DNA of 64,000 bases from a bacterium (GCA_965203325.1 OZ241875.1:2624001-2688000), one strand, 5' to 3'; shown: positions 38,607-51,630, counted from the stretch's first letter. Notes: generated by a model from the sequence alone, not told the origin. A program made the numbers and translations.

Positions 38607-38894
38607 ATGGAGGAAACCACCTTCCGCGTGGGCGACAGGGTGCGCATCAAGGAGATGTACCCCGACGGCCACCACCGGACGACGTACTTCGTGAAGGGAA
38701 AGACGGGCGTCGTCAACCGCTATTTCGGCAAATACAAGAACCCCGAGAATCTCGCCTACGGCGGCGACGGCCTGCCGCTCCGGGAACTCTACTGGGTGGA
38801 GTTCGACATCAACGATCTCTGGGATCACGAGGCGGGGAAAAAGCAGGACAAACTCTATATCGAGATTTATGAGCATTGGCTGGAGCCGGTCTAG
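38607..38894 (+). CDS. Nitrile hydratase beta-subunit C-terminal (SH3-like) domain / thiocyanate hydrolase alpha-like
   Basis: FRVGDRVRI...GHHRTTYFVKGKTG...PENLAYG...LYWVEF...LW...IEIYEHWLEP. Confidence 0.85.
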   Translation: MEETTFRVGDRVRIKEMYPDGHHRTTYFVKGKTGVVNRYFGKYKNPENLAYGGDGLPLRELYWVEFDINDLWDHEAGKKQDKLYIEIYEHWLEPV

Positions 38895-38932
38895 GCGAAT
38901 CCACCGGCTCCCCTGTGAGCGAGGAGCAAACC

Positions 38933-39697
38933 ATGGCGCACTCACACGATCACCACAACGGCGGACATGTTCACCACCACGGCGACCATCCTCACACCTA
39001 CAGCCAGGACCCCTCGGCGCACAACGCGCGGATGCAGTCCGACGACGCCTACCGCGAAGGAGCCGTGGCCCAGGTCGAGCACGATCTGGACTACTACCAG
39101 GTGCGCATGATGGCGCTGATGAACGTCCTCCGCGAGAAGGGCCTTCTCACGACCGACGAGATGCGGCGCGCGGTGGAGGAGATCTACGGCCAGAGTCCGG
39201 CCATCGGTTCGCGCATCATCGCGCGCGCCTGGGTCGATGAGGGCTTCAAGGAAAGGCTCCTGGCGGACGCGGACGCCGCCTGCGGCGAGATGGGCGTCGA
39301 CACCACGGGCATCAACCGCGTGGTGGCCCTTGAGAATACCGACACGACCCGCTACATGGTGGTGTGCACGCTGTGTTCGTGCTACCCGAGGCAAATCCTC
39401 GGGCAGCCCCCCACCTGGTACAAGAGCTTCCCCTATCGCTCGAAAGCCGTGACGGACCCGAGGGGAACATTGAAGGATATGGGCTTCGAAGCGCCCGATG
39501 ACGTGGAACTCATCGTCATCGATTCGAACGCGGATTGCCGCTATCTCATCATCCCCCAGCGTCCGGCGGGAACCGAGGACTGGAGCGAGGCGCAGCTCTT
39601 CCAGCTCGTCACGCGCGATTCGATGATCGGCGTGGGCGACCCCCTGACACCCGAGCAGCTCGAGCAAGCCATACAGGCGTCGGGGCAGGCCGGCTGA
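38933..39697 (+). CDS. Cobalt-type nitrile hydratase alpha / thiocyanate hydrolase gamma-like subunit
   Basis: VVCTLCSCYP metal motif, ARAWVD, PPTWYKS..YRS, RYLIIPQRPAGT, RDSMIG; His-rich N-terminus; GAGGAG RBS. Confidence 0.92.
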   Translation: MAHSHDHHNGGHVHHHGDHPHTYSQDPSAHNARMQSDDAYREGAVAQVEHDLDYYQVRMMALMNVLREKGLLTTDEMRRAVEEIYGQSPAIGSRIIARAWVDEGFKERLLADADAACGEMGVDTTGINRVVALENTDTTRYMVVCTLCSCYPRQILGQPPTWYKSFPYRSKAVTDPRGTLKDMGFEAPDDVELIVIDSNADCRYLIIPQRPAGTEDWSEAQLFQLVTRDSMIGVGDPLTPEQLEQAIQASGQAG

Positions 39698-41216: not shown

Positions 41217-42122
41217 CTAGCACCCGGCGTCCGTATACGCGGCGCGTTCCTCGTCCTTGAAGTCGTCCAGCAGGTTGTGCCCGCCCTCTTGTCCCTGCCG
41301 GACGGCGAAGATGGGCGGCGGCACGTCGGGGCGCCATTTGGTGGTCTCGGGCGGTTCGGGCCACTCATAGGGCAGGTGCCGGTAGGCGTTGGGCGCGTCC
41401 GCTTCTTCGAGCAGCGCGGCCATGTCCTCGCAAATCCGGCGCTGGCCCGCGTAATCGCCCACGACGCCCAACTGCCGCCCGAAGGGATACTGCACGAAAA
41501 CGGCTCTCGGCACGCAGACGCGCTCGGTGGTCTCGGGCACGTTGGAGATGATGACGGTGGCGATTCCCGCCTTTTCGATCTCGCGCTGAAGCAGTCCGCC
41601 GGACCGGTTGCAGAGCGGTCAGACCGGATAGAGAAAGGCCGCGTCCACGCCTTCGGCCTTCATCTTCTCGATCATCAGGGGCGCGGTGCGCTTCACCAGC
41701 GGGTTGAAGTTCGGGATGTAGCCCATGATGGAATAGAGCGTATCGGCCAGCGCGCCGATTTTCCCCTCCCGCTCGAAATCGAGAAAGATGTCGACCGGCC
41801 AGGAGACGTTCCTGTCCTCGGCCATGAACGAGGTGTCGACGTGCAGGTGGGAATATTCCACGTTGCCCTGGCCCGCCGTCCTGGGGATCTCCCGGTGGGT
41901 GGGGTCGCCCCAGGTGCCCTCGCGGCGCTCCCGTTCGTAGTCGAAAGAAACGTCGTCCTTCATGAAGATGCCGGCCGTGGAGACGAGGGTGACCCTGCAC
42001 TCCGCGAGCGGTTTCGCCATCGGCGTCCACGGCGTTTTGGCCGGGTCGGCGTGGCGCTGCGCCAGGACGCGCTCGCGCGAGGTGGGGTGGAAATAGAATC
42101 CATCGACTCTTTCGATTGGCAT
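41217..42122 (-). CDS. PrdB/GrdB-like (proline/glycine reductase component B family) selenoprotein, UxxC; Sec at TGA 41621-41619
   Basis: ORFs 41619-42140 and 41217-41540 are in the same frame and joined by TGA: AAFLYPV-U-PLCNRSGGLLQREIEKAGIATVIISNVPETTERVCVPRAVFVQYPFG; N-half PWTPMAKPLAECRVTLVSTAG, GDPTHREIP, DRNVSWPVD; start 42122 (GAGGA RBS) or 42140. Confidence 0.9.
41583..41621 (-). promoter_or_regulatory. Putative bacterial SECIS element of the PrdB-like gene
   Basis: UGA, 12 nt, then CGGUCC-GGC-GGACUG hairpin (41606-41592) with loop G at +19; outer CGCUCUG/CAGCG pairing. Confidence 0.65.
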
Positions 42123-42150
42123 TATGATCCTCGAATTCATGTTTCAAGAT

Positions 42151-43419
42151 TCAGGCGGGAGACGCTCCTCTCTTATCTCTTTTCACCCAGCCGAGCAACA
42201 CGGCGAAGAAGCCGCAGAGAAAGAACATGAGCGCGAAGGCCGACAAGCCCCACAGATAGGAGCCGTGCAGGTCGAACAATGCGCCCGTCGTCCATGGCCC
42301 CGCCGAGCCCCAGAGGGCGAAGCCCATCATCGCCACGCCGTTCACGCGCCCGAAGCCCGGGCCTTCGAAATAATCCGCGAGGATGGCCGAGCCGGTGGGC
42401 CGTATGAGGCCGAGCGCCAGACCGTTGGTTATCGTGCCGATGTAGAAGCGGAACTCGGGGTCTCCCTTCTCGTAGGTGGCGAGAACGAGGGCGGAGGCGA
42501 TTCCGAGCGCGTTGCCGATGAGGTAGGTCGGCACCCGTCCCAGCCGGTCCGAGACCGGGCTTACGAGGTTCGCCCCCACCTGGCAAAGCCCCCATATGGC
42601 GAACAGCACGCTCGCGGTCTGGAGCGAGAAGCCCTGGTCGGTGGCGTGGGGCACCAGATGCACGAGCATGCCCGCGAAGGCGTAGGCCATGGGCAGGAAC
42701 GAGCCCATGAAGAAGAAAAACGGCAGGTTGTACATGGAGACCGGCGGCCCGTCGGCGGATGGAGGCGCTGGTTCCGGCGCTCCTTCTTCCGGTAGGTTCT
42801 GGACGAAGGGCGCGTCGGCGATGGTGCCTTTCTCGGATGGGTGGTCCCTGTGAAAAATGATGCAGACGGGGAGCACGATGAGCAGCGTCACGCCCGCCAG
42901 CGCGAGATAGCTCATCCGCCAGCCCAAGGCCGCGATGAGGTAGGGCGTGGCGATGTTCAGGCAGAAGGCCCCTCCCTGGCAGGTGTTGGAAATGCCTAAG
43001 GCGAGCCCTCTTTTTTTCACGAACCAGTTCGAGAGCGTGGGCACCTGGGCGATCCACGTGCTCGCGGCGAAGCCCGCGCACAGGCCGATGTACATCAGGT
43101 AAAAATGCCAGAGCGAGGTGATCTGGCTCCCGATGAGCAGGGAGAGGCCGAACACCACGACCCCCGCCGACATCGACGCCCGGATGCTCCAGCGGTCGGA
43201 GAAGATGCCCGCCAGCGGCGAGATGATCGCCTGGGCCACCATCCCGATGGAAAAAGCCGCCGCCGTCGCGCCCCGGCTCCAGCCCAGCTCGCCCGAGATT
43301 TCCTTGAAGAAGGGCCCGATGGTGGCGCGGAAGGCGATGAGGGTGATCATGACGAGGAAGACCACGCCCAGGACCACCCAGCCGTACCAGAGGCGCGAAT
43401 CGTCCCGCATGGCGTCCAT
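42151..43419 (-). CDS. MFS transporter (OFA/MCT-like), copy 2
   Basis: WYGWVV, FFKEISGELGWSR, NWFVKKRGLALG, SDRLGR, ADYFEGPGFG. Confidence 0.9.
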   Translation of the reverse strand: MDAMRDDSRLWYGWVVLGVVFLVMITLIAFRATIGPFFKEISGELGWSRGATAAAFSIGMVAQAIISPLAGIFSDRWSIRASMSAGVVVFGLSLLIGSQITSLWHFYLMYIGLCAGFAASTWIAQVPTLSNWFVKKRGLALGISNTCQGGAFCLNIATPYLIAALGWRMSYLALAGVTLLIVLPVCIIFHRDHPSEKGTIADAPFVQNLPEEGAPEPAPPSADGPPVSMYNLPFFFFMGSFLPMAYAFAGMLVHLVPHATDQGFSLQTASVLFAIWGLCQVGANLVSPVSDRLGRVPTYLIGNALGIASALVLATYEKGDPEFRFYIGTITNGLALGLIRPTGSAILADYFEGPGFGRVNGVAMMGFALWGSAGPWTTGALFDLHGSYLWGLSAFALMFFLCGFFAVLLGWVKRDKRGASPA

Positions 43420-43423
43420 GGCC

Positions 43424-44713
43424 CTAGGCGCGCTCTTCGCGCGGCATGCGCGTGAGGCTCACCACGAAAACCGCGCCCGTGACGAACATGCAGCCCACGA
43501 GGAGGAAACCCGCGTAGTAGTTACCGCTCGCATCGAAGAGCATGCCCGTCACGAGGGGGCCCAAAGCGCCCACGACCGAGAAGACCATCATCGCGCACCC
43601 GTTCACGAGGCCGAAGCCCCGCCCCGCGAAATGATCCGCCAGAAGGGAAGACGCCGTGGGCCGGACGAATCCCAGAGCGAAGCCCACCCCCATCGCGCCC
43701 GCGTATATCCGCCACCCGGCCGACGCTTGCGTGAAGGCGGCCAGGAGGTAGCACGCGGCCACCCCGCACACCACCCCCACCATGAAGGTGGGGAGCCTCC
43801 CGATGCGATCCGATACCGCGCTCAGCCCGTTTCCCGCGACGAGGGCCGCCCCGTAAAGGGCGAAGAGTGCTGCGCCCCCCGAGGGGGAGAAGCCCTGGTC
43901 CGTCGCGTGGGGGATCAGGTGCACCAGGACGGCGGTGAAGATGTAGGCGATGCTGCCGTAGATGCCGCCGAGCAGCATGAACCTGCGGGTGAAGAAAAAA
44001 GAGAATGAGGCGGTCTCTTTCTCCTTATCTAAAGGGATGATGACGGCGGCTCTGGCGCGGGCGCGGGAGAATTCCTCGGAAGTGAGAAAGGGCGCGTCGG
44101 GCGCGGTGCGCTTCTCTCTGGGGTGCTCGCGCAGCAGCGCCACGGCGAAGGGCAGCAGGAAAAGAAGCACGACCCCCGCCAGCGCGAGGTAGCTCGCCCG
44201 CCAGCCGAAGGCCGCGATGAGCAGGGGGGTGAAGATGTTCACGATGGGCGCGAAGCCCTGGGCGGCGTGCGAAAATCCCATCGCGAGCCCGCGTTTCAGA
44301 ACGAACCAGTTGGCGAGCAGTTGCACCTGGGGCAGGTTGGCCGTGAAGGCGAAGCCCAGCGAGAGCAGGAAATACATGGCGTAGAAATGCCAGAGCGCGC
44401 CGATGTAGGCGCCGATGATGAGCGCCGCGCCGTTCACGAGAATGCCCGCCCCGATGACCCAGCGCATGTTGAAGCGCTCGAGCACCCATCCCGCGAAGGG
44501 GGCCACCAGCCCCTGGCCGAGCATGCCCATGGTGAAGGCGGCGGCGGTCTGCGCGCGGTTCCAGCCGAACTCGCCCGATATCTCCTTGAAGAAGACGCCG
44601 ATGGAGTTCCTGATGCCGATGACCACCGTCATGACGATGAAGACGCTGAGGAGGATCACCCAGCCGTACCACAGGCGCAGTTCTTTTCGGGTCTGGTAGC
44701 GCGATGCGATCAA
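43424..44713 (-). CDS. MFS transporter (OFA/MCT-like), copy 1
   Basis: Paralog of the neighbour; TTG start overlapping the NifU stop (TTGA) inferred. Confidence 0.88.
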   Translation of the reverse strand: MIASRYQTRKELRLWYGWVILLSVFIVMTVVIGIRNSIGVFFKEISGEFGWNRAQTAAAFTMGMLGQGLVAPFAGWVLERFNMRWVIGAGILVNGAALIIGAYIGALWHFYAMYFLLSLGFAFTANLPQVQLLANWFVLKRGLAMGFSHAAQGFAPIVNIFTPLLIAAFGWRASYLALAGVVLLFLLPFAVALLREHPREKRTAPDAPFLTSEEFSRARARAAVIIPLDKEKETASFSFFFTRRFMLLGGIYGSIAYIFTAVLVHLIPHATDQGFSPSGGAALFALYGAALVAGNGLSAVSDRIGRLPTFMVGVVCGVAACYLLAAFTQASAGWRIYAGAMGVGFALGFVRPTASSLLADHFAGRGFGLVNGCAMMVFSVVGALGPLVTGMLFDASGNYYAGFLLVGCMFVTGAVFVVSLTRMPREERA

Positions 44714-45048
44714 GTCGATGACTGGTCTTTGAGCGGATGCCCCACCCAAAACGAATAGCCGGAGTAGAATTTCTCCACCCGTTTGATGGCGTGATCGGAG
44801 ATGCGAACGCCCTCGACGGCGACGTCCGTGACGCCGGGGTGCTGCATGAGCTTCTGGCGCACGCCCAGGGCGTAGGTGACGCTCTTGAGCATGCAGCCCC
44901 GGCACGCGCCCTCGAAGCGAAGCGAGACTTCGCCGTTCTCGCTCACGCCCTCGAGCGTGATACCCCCGCCGTGAATCTTGAGAAGCGGGCGAATCTGCGT
45001 CTCGATGATGTCCTCGACGTCTGAGATTAAGGCTTCGTGCTCGTTCAT
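44710..45048 (-). CDS. NifU/NfuA C-terminal-domain protein
   Basis: IRPLLKIHGGGI...FEGACRGC (CxxC); ATGA overlap with upstream gene. Confidence 0.85.
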   Translation of the reverse strand: MNEHEALISDVEDIIETQIRPLLKIHGGGITLEGVSENGEVSLRFEGACRGCMLKSVTYALGVRQKLMQHPGVTDVAVEGVRISDHAIKRVEKFYSGYSFWVGHPLKDQSST

Positions 45049-46073
45049 CCCGCCGCTCCGTTCCAGAGTTCCCGTTTCTTCGCCTCCACGTCCACGCCGA
45101 AGATGCGCGCCTGGTTGAGTCCCAGGATGTTGCGCTTGTCCTCTTCCGTGATCTGCGGATAGCCGTAGTCGTCCTGCATGGATTCGGGGATCTCCATCTC
45201 CCATATCCACTCGATGACGGGCTTCGCGTTCCCCAGGAGCGCCATCTCCGAACCCCAGAGCACTCGCTCGGAGCCCACGTCGCGGAGCAGCCTGCCCATC
45301 CACTCGGTGAAAGTCCTCGGCGCGATCATCGGCGTGTGGCCGATGCCCGAGAGCACCAGGAACACGTTCTCGTAGCGGTTCGCCATCCAGACGACTTCCT
45401 CGAAATAGGGCACCGCCAGGTGGTGGACGCCGAAGAGGAGATCGGGAAAATCGAGCGCCGCGCCCTCGATGTCGAGCGGCGAGAGGTCGCGCAGCTTCGC
45501 CCGCGTGATGGGGTTTCCCTTGTGGAACTGGAACACCTCGACACCCAGCTCGCGTCCTTTCTCATAGAGGGGATAGGCGATTTCGGGGTCGTCGCACGCC
45601 CAGGATTTCCCGTCCACGTGGGCGTTGTAGATCTTGATGGACCGCGCCCCCCACTCCTTCACCTGGCGCTCCATCTCCTCGCACGCGGCGGCCACGCTCG
45701 GGTACATGGGGTCCACGGCCCCGCAGAACAGGCAGCGTTCGGGATAGGCCTGCGCGAAAGCGTACTGCGCCTTCACGGGCGCGAAGCCGTCCTTATAAAG
45801 ATCGAACAGGGGCACGGCCTGGGCCATCGCCATGTCGGTGCCCGAATCCTCGAAGACGAGGCGGCCCATGTCCTCGACGGTCCAGCGGCGCTTGAAGCCC
45901 TCCACCGGGTGCCAGTTCGCGTAGACGTCGGTGGGCGCGGTCCGCCTCCTGCCCAGCACCTTGCTCACGTGGTAGTGGCGGTCGTATTCGCTTTGCTCCG
46001 AGACGAGGTTCTCATCCGAGTAGTCGTACATGTGCACCACGTTGTCGAAGACGAATACGTCGCCGCGGATCAT
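45045..46073 (-). CDS. Amidohydrolase-2 family metalloprotein
   Basis: FDNVVH, KIY, FHKG, DFPDL..VHH, WGSE, KRNILGLN; AAGGAG RBS. Confidence 0.82.
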   Translation of the reverse strand: MIRGDVFVFDNVVHMYDYSDENLVSEQSEYDRHYHVSKVLGRRRTAPTDVYANWHPVEGFKRRWTVEDMGRLVFEDSGTDMAMAQAVPLFDLYKDGFAPVKAQYAFAQAYPERCLFCGAVDPMYPSVAAACEEMERQVKEWGARSIKIYNAHVDGKSWACDDPEIAYPLYEKGRELGVEVFQFHKGNPITRAKLRDLSPLDIEGAALDFPDLLFGVHHLAVPYFEEVVWMANRYENVFLVLSGIGHTPMIAPRTFTEWMGRLLRDVGSERVLWGSEMALLGNAKPVIEWIWEMEIPESMQDDYGYPQITEEDKRNILGLNQARIFGVDVEAKKRELWNGAAG

Positions 46074-46167
46074 GAGAGGAAACTCCTTCCGTGGGACAAG
46101 AATCACCACCGCCAGATTAGCACACGGCGCGCGGGCGTGTCAGATGTTGGAAGGATTTCAGGTTTCG

Positions 46168-47046
46168 CTAGTTGATGATGTTTGTTTTTATTCCCTGCGT
46201 TTTCCAATTTTCGAAAACATAATCCACGAATCCATCAACGGGTTTTGAATTGCATATCCGTGCGAGTTCGTTGCCTGAGCTTGTTAGTATTGCTTTGCCT
46301 GTTTCTATGCCGAATTTTTCACCTTTATTCTTTTCTGGCATTTCTACGGCTATTTTTTTGCCAAAATAATTTACATGAAAAGCTCTTTGGGAAAAAGTTA
46401 ATGTAAATCCAGCAGTAGAATTAAAACTAATGAGTCCTATGTCGTTGAGGTGAGAAAAAGCTTCGAATTCTACGTTTTGTTTAGTGTAAATTTCTGCATT
46501 ATGGTCATAAATTAACGGCACAGAACGATATCCAATTGTCATAATAAATGAACAAAAGGAAGTGAATAAACCTGCGTCTTTTTTATCGAGAGAACCTAAC
46601 AAATTCACCGTCCTTTTGGTGTAGGTTCCAGGCTCGTTTGCTTCTCCCGCCAGAATTTTCGACCAAAGTTGTTGCATATCGTCATCCGAGATGATTCGAC
46701 ATTTATCAAAGAAATTCACGATCCAATCATCTTCTATTTCTTCTGGTTTTAAAGAATCCCCTGCCACACGCGGAATAGCTTTTTCTATGATGGATTCCAT
46801 GTTTTCCTGTTTTTTGGCTTCTTCAGAAATGAAGCGTAGTGCAGCTCGTTGTTGTAATTCTTTGTTTTTTAATTGCCCTTGCGTCTTGATAAGGTCCGCA
46901 TCGGCTTCTGCTTGAGCGACATTTCTAATGCGGCGAGGTTCATACAAAATGCCAGTTAGATCAAAAATTCTATCTATGAGTCGAGTGAGGGGCTTAGAAA
47001 GACCGAGAGCATCTTCAATTTTAATAAGGGATTTATCATCAGACAT
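46168..47046 (-). CDS. DUF2806-like protein (AT-rich islet)
   Basis: KKQENMESI, IEDDWIVNFFDKCRIISDDDMQQLWSKILAGEANEPGTYTKRT. Confidence 0.75.
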   Translation of the reverse strand: MSDDKSLIKIEDALGLSKPLTRLIDRIFDLTGILYEPRRIRNVAQAEADADLIKTQGQLKNKELQQRAALRFISEEAKKQENMESIIEKAIPRVAGDSLKPEEIEDDWIVNFFDKCRIISDDDMQQLWSKILAGEANEPGTYTKRTVNLLGSLDKKDAGLFTSFCSFIMTIGYRSVPLIYDHNAEIYTKQNVEFEAFSHLNDIGLISFNSTAGFTLTFSQRAFHVNYFGKKIAVEMPEKNKGEKFGIETGKAILTSSGNELARICNSKPVDGFVDYVFENWKTQGIKTNIIN

Positions 47047-48957: not shown

Positions 48958-51630
48958 ATGATGTTCAAAGACAAGTATATTCACAAGCTTTACGCTTTCG
49001 CGCTGGCGGCGCTCTTCGCGCTGACGCTGGCGGGCTGTGGCGGCGGTGGCGGTGGTGCTGCTACGCCGGACCCGGAGCCGCCACCGGTGCCGCCGACGGC
49101 TTATGAGGTGGCGGTTGATGCAATCGCGGCAGCCGAGACGGAGGCAGCGGCGCGGGCGGCGGTCGCCACGGCAGTGGCCGCCGGCATCTCGGGCACGGAG
49201 CTCCAGGACCTGAACACGAAGGTCGACGAGCGCGTGGCGGCCCTGGCCATGATGGCTCGGATCGATGCGCAGAAGATGGCTTTGGCGAACGCGGCCGGCA
49301 TGATCGACACGTCCGACCTGTCGACTCAGGCTGCGGTCGATGCGGCCGAGGCTGCCATCGCCGCGCTGAAGGCGGCGATCGCCGCCGCGGCCGACGTCGA
49401 CGACACGTCGATGTACGACGCGCAGGTGACCGCGGCCGAGACAGCCGTGGCGAACGCGCAGAGCATGCTCGACCATGCGGCCCAGACGACGGCGCTGGCG
49501 GATGCCGTTACGGCCCTTCAGGCAATCGACCTGACCGACCTGTCGACGCAGGAGAAGATCGACGACGCCCAGGGCGCCATCGACGCGCTTCAGACGGCGC
49601 TGGACAACGCGACAGAACTGAGCGCTGCCGAAAAGAGAGCAGCCATGACCGAGCTGGCGACAGCCAATCGGAACGTGATGCTGGCGCAGGGCAGAACCGA
49701 CCTCGAGGTCCAGAGGATGGCGCTCTCGAGTGCCGTCGAGGGCCTTCAGGCAATCGACCTGACCGACCTGTCGACGCAGGAGAAGATCGACGACGCCGAA
49801 GCGGCCATCGTCGCGCTTGAACTGGCTCTGGAGCAGGCGACCGATCTGACCGACGCCGAGAAGCTCGACGCCACCGTCGACGTGACGGTGGCCAAGCGGA
49901 GGGTGGCGAGTGCGCAGGAAACTCTCACCGCCAACGTCGGTACGCAGAGAACGGCTCTTGCGGACGCGGCCGGCATGATCGACACGTCCGACCTGTCGAC
50001 CCAGGAGAAGATCGACGCCGCCAACGCGGGCATCCGGGCTCTCAGGCAGGCGCTGGAAGACGCGGTCAATGTTCCGAACAAGTCGATGTACCAGAGGATG
50101 CTGGACGACGCCATTGCTGCCGTAGATAGTGCGCAGGGTGGCATCGACACCGCAACGCGCCGGACGAACCAGACGACAGCGCTGTCGGATGCTTCCACGA
50201 CGCTCCAGGCGGCCCTCGCGGCGCTTGCCGGTTCGACGCCAACGCAGGAGCAGCTCGACGCCGCCAACAATGCCCTTACCGCTCTGAACGCGGCGATTAC
50301 CGGCGGCGCGGACCTGACCGACGCGGAAAAGGCTACGTATGTGCGAGAGGCGACCAATGCGGCGGCGCCGATCCAAACGGCGCAAGCCGCCTTCGATAAG
50401 GCCGAGGACGATGCGCAGAAGGCCGCGGATGCGGAGATGATGGAGGATGCCAGGAAGCTGTATGCCGGCATCAGTGTTCAGACGGGGACCGCTGGCTCAC
50501 CTGCCGTCGGTGATCGGATCGCCACTTACAACACCGCTGGCACCGCCATTGAGGTGAGCGCCGGCCTCCCCACCACCGCGCCCGCAGCCGTCACCCTGTC
50601 GGAAGACAAGGATGCGCCGGACGTCACCCTCCATGGCTGGGCACGCAAGAGGTACGCCGACCCCGCCGGCGGTGACAGCTACGAGGCAGTCGTCTACTCG
50701 AACGTCGGCGAACCGACGGAGGGCAAGAAGTTCGGCGGGACAGGAGCCCAAGTGACAGCCAACGAGGTCGAGTACGAGCTGACGGACGGGGCGCTCGCCA
50801 TCGACACGACCGACGCAGCTGTCGCGGGGAGAGTCGCCAGTCCGAGCTTCGACCAGTCCGCCGGGACGAAGGTGTTCAAGAAGGACGACAATGAAGTCGC
50901 CAGGATGATCCCCGGCAGCTACCACGGCGTGTCCGGCACCTACAGTTGCACGCCCACCACCGGCACCAACGCTTGCTCGGCTACGGTGGCTGCAGACGGC
51001 TTCACGCTCACCGGCGGCACCTGGACCTTCAAGCCCACCGACGCGAACGACCGGCTCATGGAAACGCCGGACGGCAACTACGCCTCCTACGGCTGGTGGC
51101 TCTACAAGTCAGCGGACGGCGATACCTTCATCGCGAGCGCATTCGTGGATGACAGGGGCGATGGCGAGGGTGCGGCCAGCGGCATCACGGCCTTGCAGGG
51201 AACGGCAACCTACATGGGTGGCGCCGCCGGCAAGTACGCGCTCCACAGCACCACCGGCGGAGCGAACGACGCCGGCCACTTCACCGCGGACGTGACGCTC
51301 GAAGCCGATTTCGGCGACGACATGATCACGGGCACCATCGACAACTTCATGGGCGCCGATGGTGAGTCGCGTGACTGGTCCGTCAAGCTGAATGAAACGG
51401 ACATCAGCGATACCGGGGATATTGACGGTCTCGGCGGTGCCGCCAACGACGAGCAGGTCGGGACGGTCTGGACCAGGGGCGGGACGGCTGCCGCTAAATC
51501 CGGCCAATGGTCCGGAGCTCTCTATGGCAACGGCGACGACGGCGTTCCGCAGGTCGCGACCGGCACGTTCTACACCGAGTTCAATCGGGACGGAAAAATG
51601 GTCGGCGGCTTCGGCGTGAAGAAGCAGTAG
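48958..51630 (+). CDS. Large surface lipoprotein: Ala-rich helical repeats plus C-terminal TbpB-like handle/beta-barrel
   Basis: Lipobox LAGC then G6 linker; repeats ID(T/L)(S/T)DLSTQ; C-terminal YGWW, GTATYMGGAAGKY, FTADVTLEADF, ITGTIDNF, GQWSG, GTF, MVGGFGVKKQ. Confidence 0.8.
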   Translation: MMFKDKYIHKLYAFALAALFALTLAGCGGGGGGAATPDPEPPPVPPTAYEVAVDAIAAAETEAAARAAVATAVAAGISGTELQDLNTKVDERVAALAMMARIDAQKMALANAAGMIDTSDLSTQAAVDAAEAAIAALKAAIAAAADVDDTSMYDAQVTAAETAVANAQSMLDHAAQTTALADAVTALQAIDLTDLSTQEKIDDAQGAIDALQTALDNATELSAAEKRAAMTELATANRNVMLAQGRTDLEVQRMALSSAVEGLQAIDLTDLSTQEKIDDAEAAIVALELALEQATDLTDAEKLDATVDVTVAKRRVASAQETLTANVGTQRTALADAAGMIDTSDLSTQEKIDAANAGIRALRQALEDAVNVPNKSMYQRMLDDAIAAVDSAQGGIDTATRRTNQTTALSDASTTLQAALAALAGSTPTQEQLDAANNALTALNAAITGGADLTDAEKATYVREATNAAAPIQTAQAAFDKAEDDAQKAADAEMMEDARKLYAGISVQTGTAGSPAVGDRIATYNTAGTAIEVSAGLPTTAPAAVTLSEDKDAPDVTLHGWARKRYADPAGGDSYEAVVYSNVGEPTEGKKFGGTGAQVTANEVEYELTDGALAIDTTDAAVAGRVASPSFDQSAGTKVFKKDDNEVARMIPGSYHGVSGTYSCTPTTGTNACSATVAADGFTLTGGTWTFKPTDANDRLMETPDGNYASYGWWLYKSADGDTFIASAFVDDRGDGEGAASGITALQGTATYMGGAAGKYALHSTTGGANDAGHFTADVTLEADFGDDMITGTIDNFMGADGESRDWSVKLNETDISDTGDIDGLGGAANDEQVGTVWTRGGTAAAKSGQWSGALYGNGDDGVPQVATGTFYTEFNRDGKMVGGFGVKKQ

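Follow-up and report, generated by a model that had tools for sequence, protein, structure and literature searches.

The gene considered here lies on the minus strand at 41217-42140 of a 64,000-nucleotide stretch of bacterial DNA (GCA_965203325.1 OZ241875.1:2624001-2688000; the whole stretch is called the window below, and positions are counted from its first letter). It is the last of five genes encoding an amidohydrolase, a NifU/Nfu-type protein, two transporters of the major facilitator superfamily (MFS) and a relative of the D-proline reductase subunit PrdB, and it is predicted to be read through a UGA codon as selenocysteine (Sec, U). To judge from its sequence, it is most likely a stand-alone member of a partner-less 'PrdB-like' branch of the GRDB superfamily. 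We think it probable, taking the evidence as a whole, that the product is a stand-alone, UGA-decoded selenoprotein working as a U174/C177 reductase, and that its linkage to the amidohydrolase-Nfu-MFS operon is specific to one genus and not obligatory.

An in-frame UGA and its decoding

Genetic code table 11 splits the PrdB-like gene at a TGA; with that TGA read as Sec, 41217-42140 becomes a single frame of 307 residues, related to Pfam GRDB and TIGR04483, with Sec at position 174 (...AFLYPV-U-PLCNRSGG...) and a TAG stop at 41219-41217. An earlier note on this DNA had reported five tightly coupled genes, the last of them split in the open reading frame (ORF) track by an in-frame TGA within LYPV-U-PLCNRS, and both observations are confirmed. 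The corresponding public database entries, produced by gene callers, stop at residue 168-169, and the gene is mis-split in public annotation. Two starts come into consideration, ATG 42140 (307 residues) and ATG 42122 (301 residues), of which the second, preceded by GAGGA and used by the database homologues and orthologues, is the more likely. The predicted product is an alpha/beta protein of approximately 34 kDa. Its orthologues in the genus are 84-95% identical and carry one in-frame TGA in each of 18 intact genomes; besides U174 and C177, the motifs WGDPTHREIP, HxHxD and DRN are conserved, and a Pro-rich C-terminal stretch (EWPEPPE..W..P) is kept across the close family. The earlier note had also singled out a Pro-rich extension ending in Cys, but the terminal Cys is not a conserved feature, being found in only two of 21 orthologues.

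The UGA codon at 41619-41621 (minus strand) supplies U174 of a U-P-L-C177 redox motif, as placed by an alignment column of TGA and Cys codons. The host genome (4.39 Mb, one contig) was searched for the Sec machinery, as the earlier note had proposed, and selA (571 bits), selB (393 bits), selD (333 bits) and tRNA-Sec (75.9 bits) were all found above their family cut-offs; the selD gene carries an in-frame TGA of its own. The homologues, whose codon at this position had been a second proposed check, have TGA or Cys there in nearly all relatives. At the U174 column, 43 of 46 high-scoring segment pairs from the relatives' genomes have TGA, one has TGC, and the remaining two are second pieces of split genes, lying out of frame, while 70 metagenome loci gave 60 with TGA, six with a Cys codon and four uncovered, making seven loci with Cys in place of TGA in the two sets. 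A pool of 178 proteins was assembled from a word-indexed search (29) and the 150 best representatives of a library of 1.84 billion proteins, with one shared. In this pool 54 proteins terminate exactly at the U position, which marks them as Sec forms cut by gene callers, 48 are full-length CxxC proteins, and others, in smaller numbers, have S, G, N, W, D or another residue at one of the two motif positions. The in-frame sequence past the TGA is strongly conserved, with R179, S180, L183-R186, R212, A213 and Q233 invariant in the close family. Of 61 related genomes, 42 gave a match at E<=1e-10, and the 22 further members of the window's genus are all among them; a genome usually has three paralogues, nearly every one of them with exactly one in-frame TGA.

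Downstream of the UGA lies a hairpin resembling a Sec insertion sequence (SECIS), at 41586-41613 on the minus strand, in which a core stem pairs 41606-41601 with 41597-41592 around an apical GGC loop (41600-41598). In the bacterial SECIS (bSECIS) model, a hairpin shortly downstream of the UGA presents a G in its apical loop. The present hairpin agrees with this model both in its distance, the first loop base being 21 nt past the U of the UGA, and in its loop, which across homologues reads G(G/U)N. Nearly all of 33 homologous sequences preserve its six core pairs, with changes from C-G to A-U, from G-C to A-U and from G-U to A-U. In these 33 sequences the helix pairs in 81.8% of cells, compared with 20.5-52.3% when the partner is slid; five pairs are changed on both sides, and the covariation score was reached by none of 500 shuffles. 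The region also codes for the conserved residues RSGGLL, so part of the conservation of the hairpin is protein-driven; the compensatory changes fall mostly at synonymous sites. The SECIS-like hairpin of the earlier note is thus present and kept by compensatory changes, and we conclude that the UGA at 41621-41619 is, as far as sequence comparison can indicate, decoded as Sec with the aid of this hairpin.

Relationship to PrdB, GrdB and the known selenoprotein family

The earlier note had taken the gene for a genuine Sec protein related to PrdB and GrdB, and the family searches agree. The Pfam GRDB model (PF07355) matched with 37.3 bits against a cut-off of 22, aligning residues 38-170 with model positions 216-344 of 347. 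The best NCBIfam match was PrdB (TIGR04483), with 124.7 bits, under the cut-off of 300, and the model for the selenoprotein B subfamily of glycine/betaine/sarcosine/D-proline reductases (TIGR01918) gave 54.4 bits, under the cut-off of 65.45. Sequence searches of solved structures returned no relative of the protein. An AlphaFold2 model built from an alignment of 27 sequences (predicted local distance difference test score, pLDDT, 88; predicted template modelling score, pTM, 0.89) places U174 in a loop between a strand (167-171) and a helix (177-190), with C177 in the first helical turn. A Foldseek search with this model against the PDB gave nothing at E<=0.001. Assigning a fold from the structure searches was therefore dropped, as the only matches were generic Rossmann-like ones at noise level.

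The family itself is known and catalogued, although it is biochemically uncharacterised, and the gene in the window is a further member of it. The earlier note had called the system undescribed, which is wrong at the level of the family: in the available portions of the marine selenoproteome papers, it has been listed since 2005. As excerpted, these surveys count 42 Sec and one Cys form of a 'proline reductase PrdB' with a UxxC motif in the Sargasso Sea (PMC1088965) and 235 Sec and 110 Cys forms in the Global Ocean Sampling set (PMC2398784), and the accessible part of another places the family also in Anaeromyxobacter and Geobacter (PMC1794560). Five such PrdB selenoproteins are reported from the delta-1 symbiont of Olavius (PMC1976440), and a 2026 review places the family under D-proline reductase (PMC13188914). 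The BSepDB collection reports 48-54 selenoprotein genes, among the richest selenoproteomes, in metagenome-assembled genomes (MAGs) of 'Nitrospinota'/UBA8248 (PMC13326102), and one of its UBA8248 MAGs is a relative of the window genome. The correct reading of the gene adds a selenoprotein to the genomes of a lineage noted for very large selenoproteomes; its family, one of the most abundant among marine selenoproteins, is still without a known reaction. The literature covered, which did not extend to the supplementary tables of the selenoproteome papers, assigned no reaction to the partner-less PrdB family, and a comparative-genomics paper on the Nitrospinota nowhere mentions 'seleno', 'glycine reductase' or 'proline reductase'.

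The five-gene locus and the contexts of the family

The four genes upstream are packed tightly on the same strand, as read directly from the sequence. The Amidohydrolase_2 gene (PF04909, 99.6 bits) occupies 45045-46109, with ATG 46073 the probable start to judge by its orthologues; it has no NCBIfam match, its nearest solved chain is an uncharacterised protein (3irs, E 2.5e-4), and the ESM Atlas returned generic PF04909 clusters only. It overlaps by ATGA (45048-45045), and is thereby translationally coupled, with a gene for a NifU/Nfu C-terminal-domain protein of 112 residues with a CRGC motif (44710-45048; Pfam NifU, 60.1 bits), which in turn overlaps by TTGA (44713-44710) with the first transporter gene, MFS_A (43424-44713; MFS_1). 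After a gap of 4 nt follows its paralogue MFS_B (42151-43419; MFS_1, 148 bits), 46-50% identical by tblastn, both of them resembling oxalate/formate and monocarboxylate transporters; the best NCBIfam match of MFS_B, an L-lactate MFS transporter, is below the cut-off. MFS_B is the copy kept in every member of the genus and in a sister genus (g5), and MFS_A is missing or truncated in three of 21 genus loci. From MFS_B to the PrdB-like gene there are 10 nt if ATG 42140 is the start, or 28 nt if it is ATG 42122. Scans for promoters and terminators gave sites no more numerous than in shuffled sequence.

Twenty-one other loci were fetched within the window's genus (g1). The order amidohydrolase, NifU, MFS, PrdB-like gene is kept in all 21, with both MFS copies in 18. 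Conservation extends to the flanking EamA, phosphodiesterase and nitrile-hydratase-like genes, which makes the five-gene order within the genus plain synteny of little functional weight. In two loci (G007 and G022) approximately 2.9 kb separates MFS_B from the PrdB-like gene; the best-matching ORFs of the G022 insert (L096) are opposite-strand VOC, polysaccharide deacetylase and CMD genes, the G007 insert being known by its length alone. In G003, G007 and G022 (L094, L095 and L096), all of them long-read assemblies, the PrdB-like gene falls into two frames, which may reflect either decay or assembly error.

Beyond the genus the order does not hold, an outcome that the earlier note had named as refuting its proposal. 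In 19 loci fetched around other PrdB-like copies, of which 18 belong to other genera and one (L101) surrounds paralogue 2 of a g1 genome, the homologue was found without any of the four partner genes next to it. In the sister genus g5, where the amidohydrolase orthologues are 74-75% identical, the three loci fetched contain EamA, amidohydrolase-NifU-MFS and nitrile hydratase genes and no PrdB-like gene, and two of these genomes (G032 and G036) gave no PrdB-like match genome-wide at E<=1e-10. Two further genomes (G027 and G044) have the amidohydrolase-NifU pair alone, with neither MFS nor PrdB-like gene beside it. These arrangements indicate that the conserved module is amidohydrolase-Nfu, with or without MFS, and the PrdB-like gene appears to be a genus-specific addition to an older operon, amidohydrolase-Nfu-MFS, at whose 3' end it lies and with which it is probably co-transcribed in this genus. 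The linkage would then be genus-specific and obligatory neither for the selenoprotein nor for the amidohydrolase module.

These results bear on the interpretation in the earlier note, which is partly supported. It had read the five genes as a candidate Sec-dependent catabolic system; in the form weighed here, a dedicated one, the MFS proteins would import a carboxylate, the amidohydrolase would open it, the selenoprotein would reduce it and the Nfu-like CxxC protein would serve as a redox or metal-delivery partner. The tight same-strand packing, with its ATGA and TTGA overlaps and its gaps of 4 and 10-28 nt, speaks for such a system, as do the intact order in 18 genus loci and the window and the position of the nearest outgroup clade (72-73% identity), which lies behind an arylformamidase-like cyclase, an alpha/beta hydrolase or a creatininase. 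We nevertheless consider it unlikely, as the order is limited to one genus in which the EamA, phosphodiesterase and nitrile hydratase flanks are syntenic too, three g5 loci keep amidohydrolase-NifU-MFS without the selenoprotein, and some g1 loci show the PrdB-like gene parted from MFS_B (two of 21, with opposite-strand genes in between in G022) or split into two frames, by decay or assembly error (three of 21). The NifU protein, which had been proposed as the partner of the selenoprotein, pairs with the amidohydrolase instead, as in G027 and G044. A new five-gene catabolic system, as a claim, thus does not hold beyond one genus.

Three other features of the window were noted around this locus. 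A DUF2806/TIGR03899-like gene (46168-47046) lies between the amidohydrolase and EamA in an island of 37-42% GC, with flanks of approximately 64% GC; it has no match in the 21 syntenic genus loci, where EamA stands approximately 0.1-0.5 kb from the amidohydrolase, and is likely a recent insertion. The protein encoded at 38876-39697 resembles nitrile hydratase alpha (239 bits for PF02979, but under the cut-off for TIGR01323); it has a His-rich N-terminal extension and is syntenic with the locus across two genera. A large predicted lipoprotein of 890 residues (48958-51630) contains repeated Ala-rich units of the 'IDLTDLSTQEKIDDA' type.

The contexts of the family elsewhere were surveyed by recording, for 92 nearly full-length genes taken from genomes and metagenomes (some loci being duplicates), which same-strand gene lies directly upstream; as the metagenome scan used a close-family alignment (A3), this census is biased to close relatives. 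An MFS gene precedes 21 of the 92 (this genus and two matching metagenome contigs), an MDMPI_N/DinB_2/SCP2 protein 14 (the genome's own copy scoring above the TIGR03083 cut-off), a PIG3-like 'Zn-ADH' of the medium-chain dehydrogenase/reductase (MDR) type, resembling quinone reductases, eight, a protein of approximately 162 residues without family seven, and an arylformamidase-like cyclase five. An alpha/beta hydrolase, an FMN-dependent dehydrogenase, a DoxX gene and a creatininase each occur once, something else stands upstream in 22 cases, and no upstream flank was available in 11. A quick maximum-likelihood analysis (IQ-TREE) of 87 distinct sequences gave separate and supported context clades (MFS 99, cyclase 100, ADH 98), and on this tree the context labels require 20 changes compared with a mean of 55 for shuffled labels, a contrast that close relatives inflate.

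The pair with the MDMPI protein spans contigs of 35-69% GC with gaps of -10 to approximately 180 nt, often beside a gene of the FAA-hydrolase family. In the window genome it is formed not by the window gene but by paralogue 2 (C1:3075936-3076817), which is 66% identical to the window protein. Of the neighbours, the MDMPI protein is on this sequence evidence the strongest candidate for a genuine partner, and together with paralogue 2 it may form a two-subunit enzyme. The pair stands at L030 8989-10815 (G000:C1:3074988-3076814), and also at L081, L085, L097, L098, L180, L183, L187-L189, L194 and L093.

Further branches of the family were seen in passing. The third paralogue of the genome (L031 9519-10214; G000:C1:2498521-2499213) is 40% identical, with the motif PAUGLCNRS, and is flanked by a DoxX-family gene and a gene for a cysteine-dioxygenase-like cupin. 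A mostly non-marine clade from metagenomes (L197, L199, L201, L204, L205 and L208) is 41-47% identical and has LTPAUPLCCRSV, with Cys in some members; an upstream ORF of approximately 162-191 residues that matches neither Pfam nor NCBIfam recurs in it. A DUF362 gene lies downstream in three loci (L197, L198 and L204). An aromatic ring-cleavage theme among the neighbours (MDMPI, FAA hydrolase, LigB, PcaD-like, CMD, Amidohydro_2 and arylformamidase-like genes) was dropped, being a lead only, without a background frequency.

Possible functions and comparison with known systems

We suggest that the protein is most likely a stand-alone selenol/thiol reductase using U174 and C177. In analogy to PrdB and to UxxC/CxxC enzymes of other kinds, a small substrate would be attacked at an electrophilic atom by the U174 selenolate, the adduct would be resolved by C177 into a Se-S bond (selenenylsulfide), and a cellular thiol system would then reduce that bond; in the available part of the source, a nucleophilic Sec mechanism is described for PrdB (PMC11229817). 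Several points weigh against this reading or parts of it. The mechanism is drawn by analogy. A minority of distant homologues has Ser, Gly, Asn, Asp or others at the U or C position, so that not every branch can use U/C chemistry. A wide VIA-align search with the model gave only Rossmann-like matches of the LacI or short-chain dehydrogenase/reductase (SDR) type with Z<=8.6, which is the level of common arrangements and noise, and the single hairpin of the target folds no better than shuffles (z -0.34). As to the linkage, the gap of 10-28 nt and the same-strand order favour co-transcription, so a local functional link is possible, and the metal-dependent hydrolases in other contexts (cyclase, creatininase, alpha/beta hydrolase) fit loosely with the 'hydrolase then reductase' scheme of the earlier note.

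A reading to which we give about as little weight as to the dedicated system is that of a general thiol/selenol protein oxidoreductase, an antioxidant or disulfide reductase acting on proteins or peroxides, with neighbours that are incidental. The UxxC at a helix N-terminus and the Sec/Cys interchange are typical of thiol oxidoreductases, three paralogues per genome occur in varied contexts, one of them with MsrB (SelR domain) adjoining, and the excerpted selenoproteome surveys put the family among homologues of thiol-based oxidoreductases (PMC1088965, PMC2398784 and PMC1794560). The protein, however, lacks a thioredoxin-like fold and is homologous to B subunits that handle substrates; moreover, each clade keeps a specific upstream enzyme gene, as with the MDMPI pair over contigs of 35-69% GC, and dedicated pathways fit such clade-specific genes better than does housekeeping redox.

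Those neighbours also suggest, with a similarly modest chance of being right, that the PrdB-like proteins are modular selenol 'B subunits', each working with a clade-specific upstream enzyme in place of PrdA/GrdE, be it a DinB/MDMPI protein resembling thiol-dependent isomerases, a quinone-reductase-like MDR protein or an arylformamidase-like cyclase. In the genus of the window, one copy would have come to stand behind an operon of the carboxylate-transporter/amidohydrolase-Nfu type. Were this true, the gene would supply the breakdown of an organic acid taken up from outside, perhaps a product of ring cleavage, with a reductive step that depends on Sec. The one new lead here is in fact the census, in which clades keep different upstream enzyme genes; the DinB/MDMPI-SCP2 protein is the most widespread specific neighbour, occurring on contigs from 35 to 69% GC, and the census suggests testable hypotheses on partner and substrate.

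Returning to the stand-alone reductase, no pyruvoyl partner was found near the gene, in agreement with the earlier note. In the genome-wide search for prdA and grdE that the note had proposed, the single PF09338 gene of the genome was GrdE (C1:524146-525306), in a canonical grdA(TGA)-grdE-grdB(TGA) cluster approximately 2.1 Mb away. Twelve relatives with PrdB-like genes, including the single-contig genomes G001, G006 and G029 (completeness 98-100%), gave no PF09338 match, which points to a protein independent of a pyruvoyl partner. With no pyruvoyl PrdA/GrdE subunit, it is not a D-proline or glycine reductase, and D-proline and glycine are unlikely substrates. The GrdB of the cluster (L032 7634-9391, minus strand; G000:C1:522634-524391) has a Sec site of the form ATUGTGTRSGA, without Cys at +3 or +6. 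It is very improbable that the PrdB-like protein serves as a Stickland-type B subunit in trans with GrdE and GrdA: the genome does have grdA, grdE and grdB, and PrdB is the best NCBIfam match, but the PrdB and TIGR01918 scores fall under their cut-offs, the former far so, the 12 relatives, three of them complete single contigs, gave no PF09338 match, and the canonical cluster already has its own GrdB. That the TGA is a true stop, leaving two separate genes or a pseudogene, is scarcely credible, as public gene callers do end the protein there (entries of 168-169 residues) but the frame past the TGA is 60-95% identical in more than 80 loci with no separate start codon at the junction, seven loci have Cys codons instead, and a covarying hairpin accompanies a complete Sec machinery.

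Among the known systems close to the stand-alone protein is PrdB of D-proline reductase (Clostridioides difficile and C. sticklandii; TIGR04483, Sec151), of which it spans model positions 18-234 of 238, with Sec at the homologous site and Cys at +3, U174-P-L-C177 being a UxxC motif. It differs in scoring under the PrdB cut-off, in lacking PrdA and any prd genes seen nearby, and in being longer by approximately 35 residues at the N-terminus and 45 at the C-terminus, the conserved Pro/Trp-rich stretch among them. To GrdB, GrdF and GrdH (protein B of glycine, sarcosine and betaine reductase; PF07355, TIGR01918) it is related through the GRDB match above cut-off and a homologous C-terminal half, the genome's own GrdB being 26-27% identical with its TGA in the same column. 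Unlike them, it lacks the N-terminal half of GrdB (approximately 215 residues), falls below the TIGR01918 cut-off and is not adjacent to grdA or grdE; in outline, then, the protein is PrdB, or the C-terminal half of GrdB, with its two terminal additions.

Another close system is the marine PrdB family (Zhang, Fomenko and Gladyshev 2005; Zhang and Gladyshev 2008), with which the protein shares, by the description in the available text of those papers, PrdB homology, a UxxC motif containing Sec, marine origin, a site that is mainly Sec and rarely Cys, and presence in organisms other than Stickland fermenters and without reductase partners. Those papers, as excerpted, list the family without gene context, whereas the family described here has clade-specific upstream neighbours and, in the genus of the window, a transporter/amidohydrolase operon.

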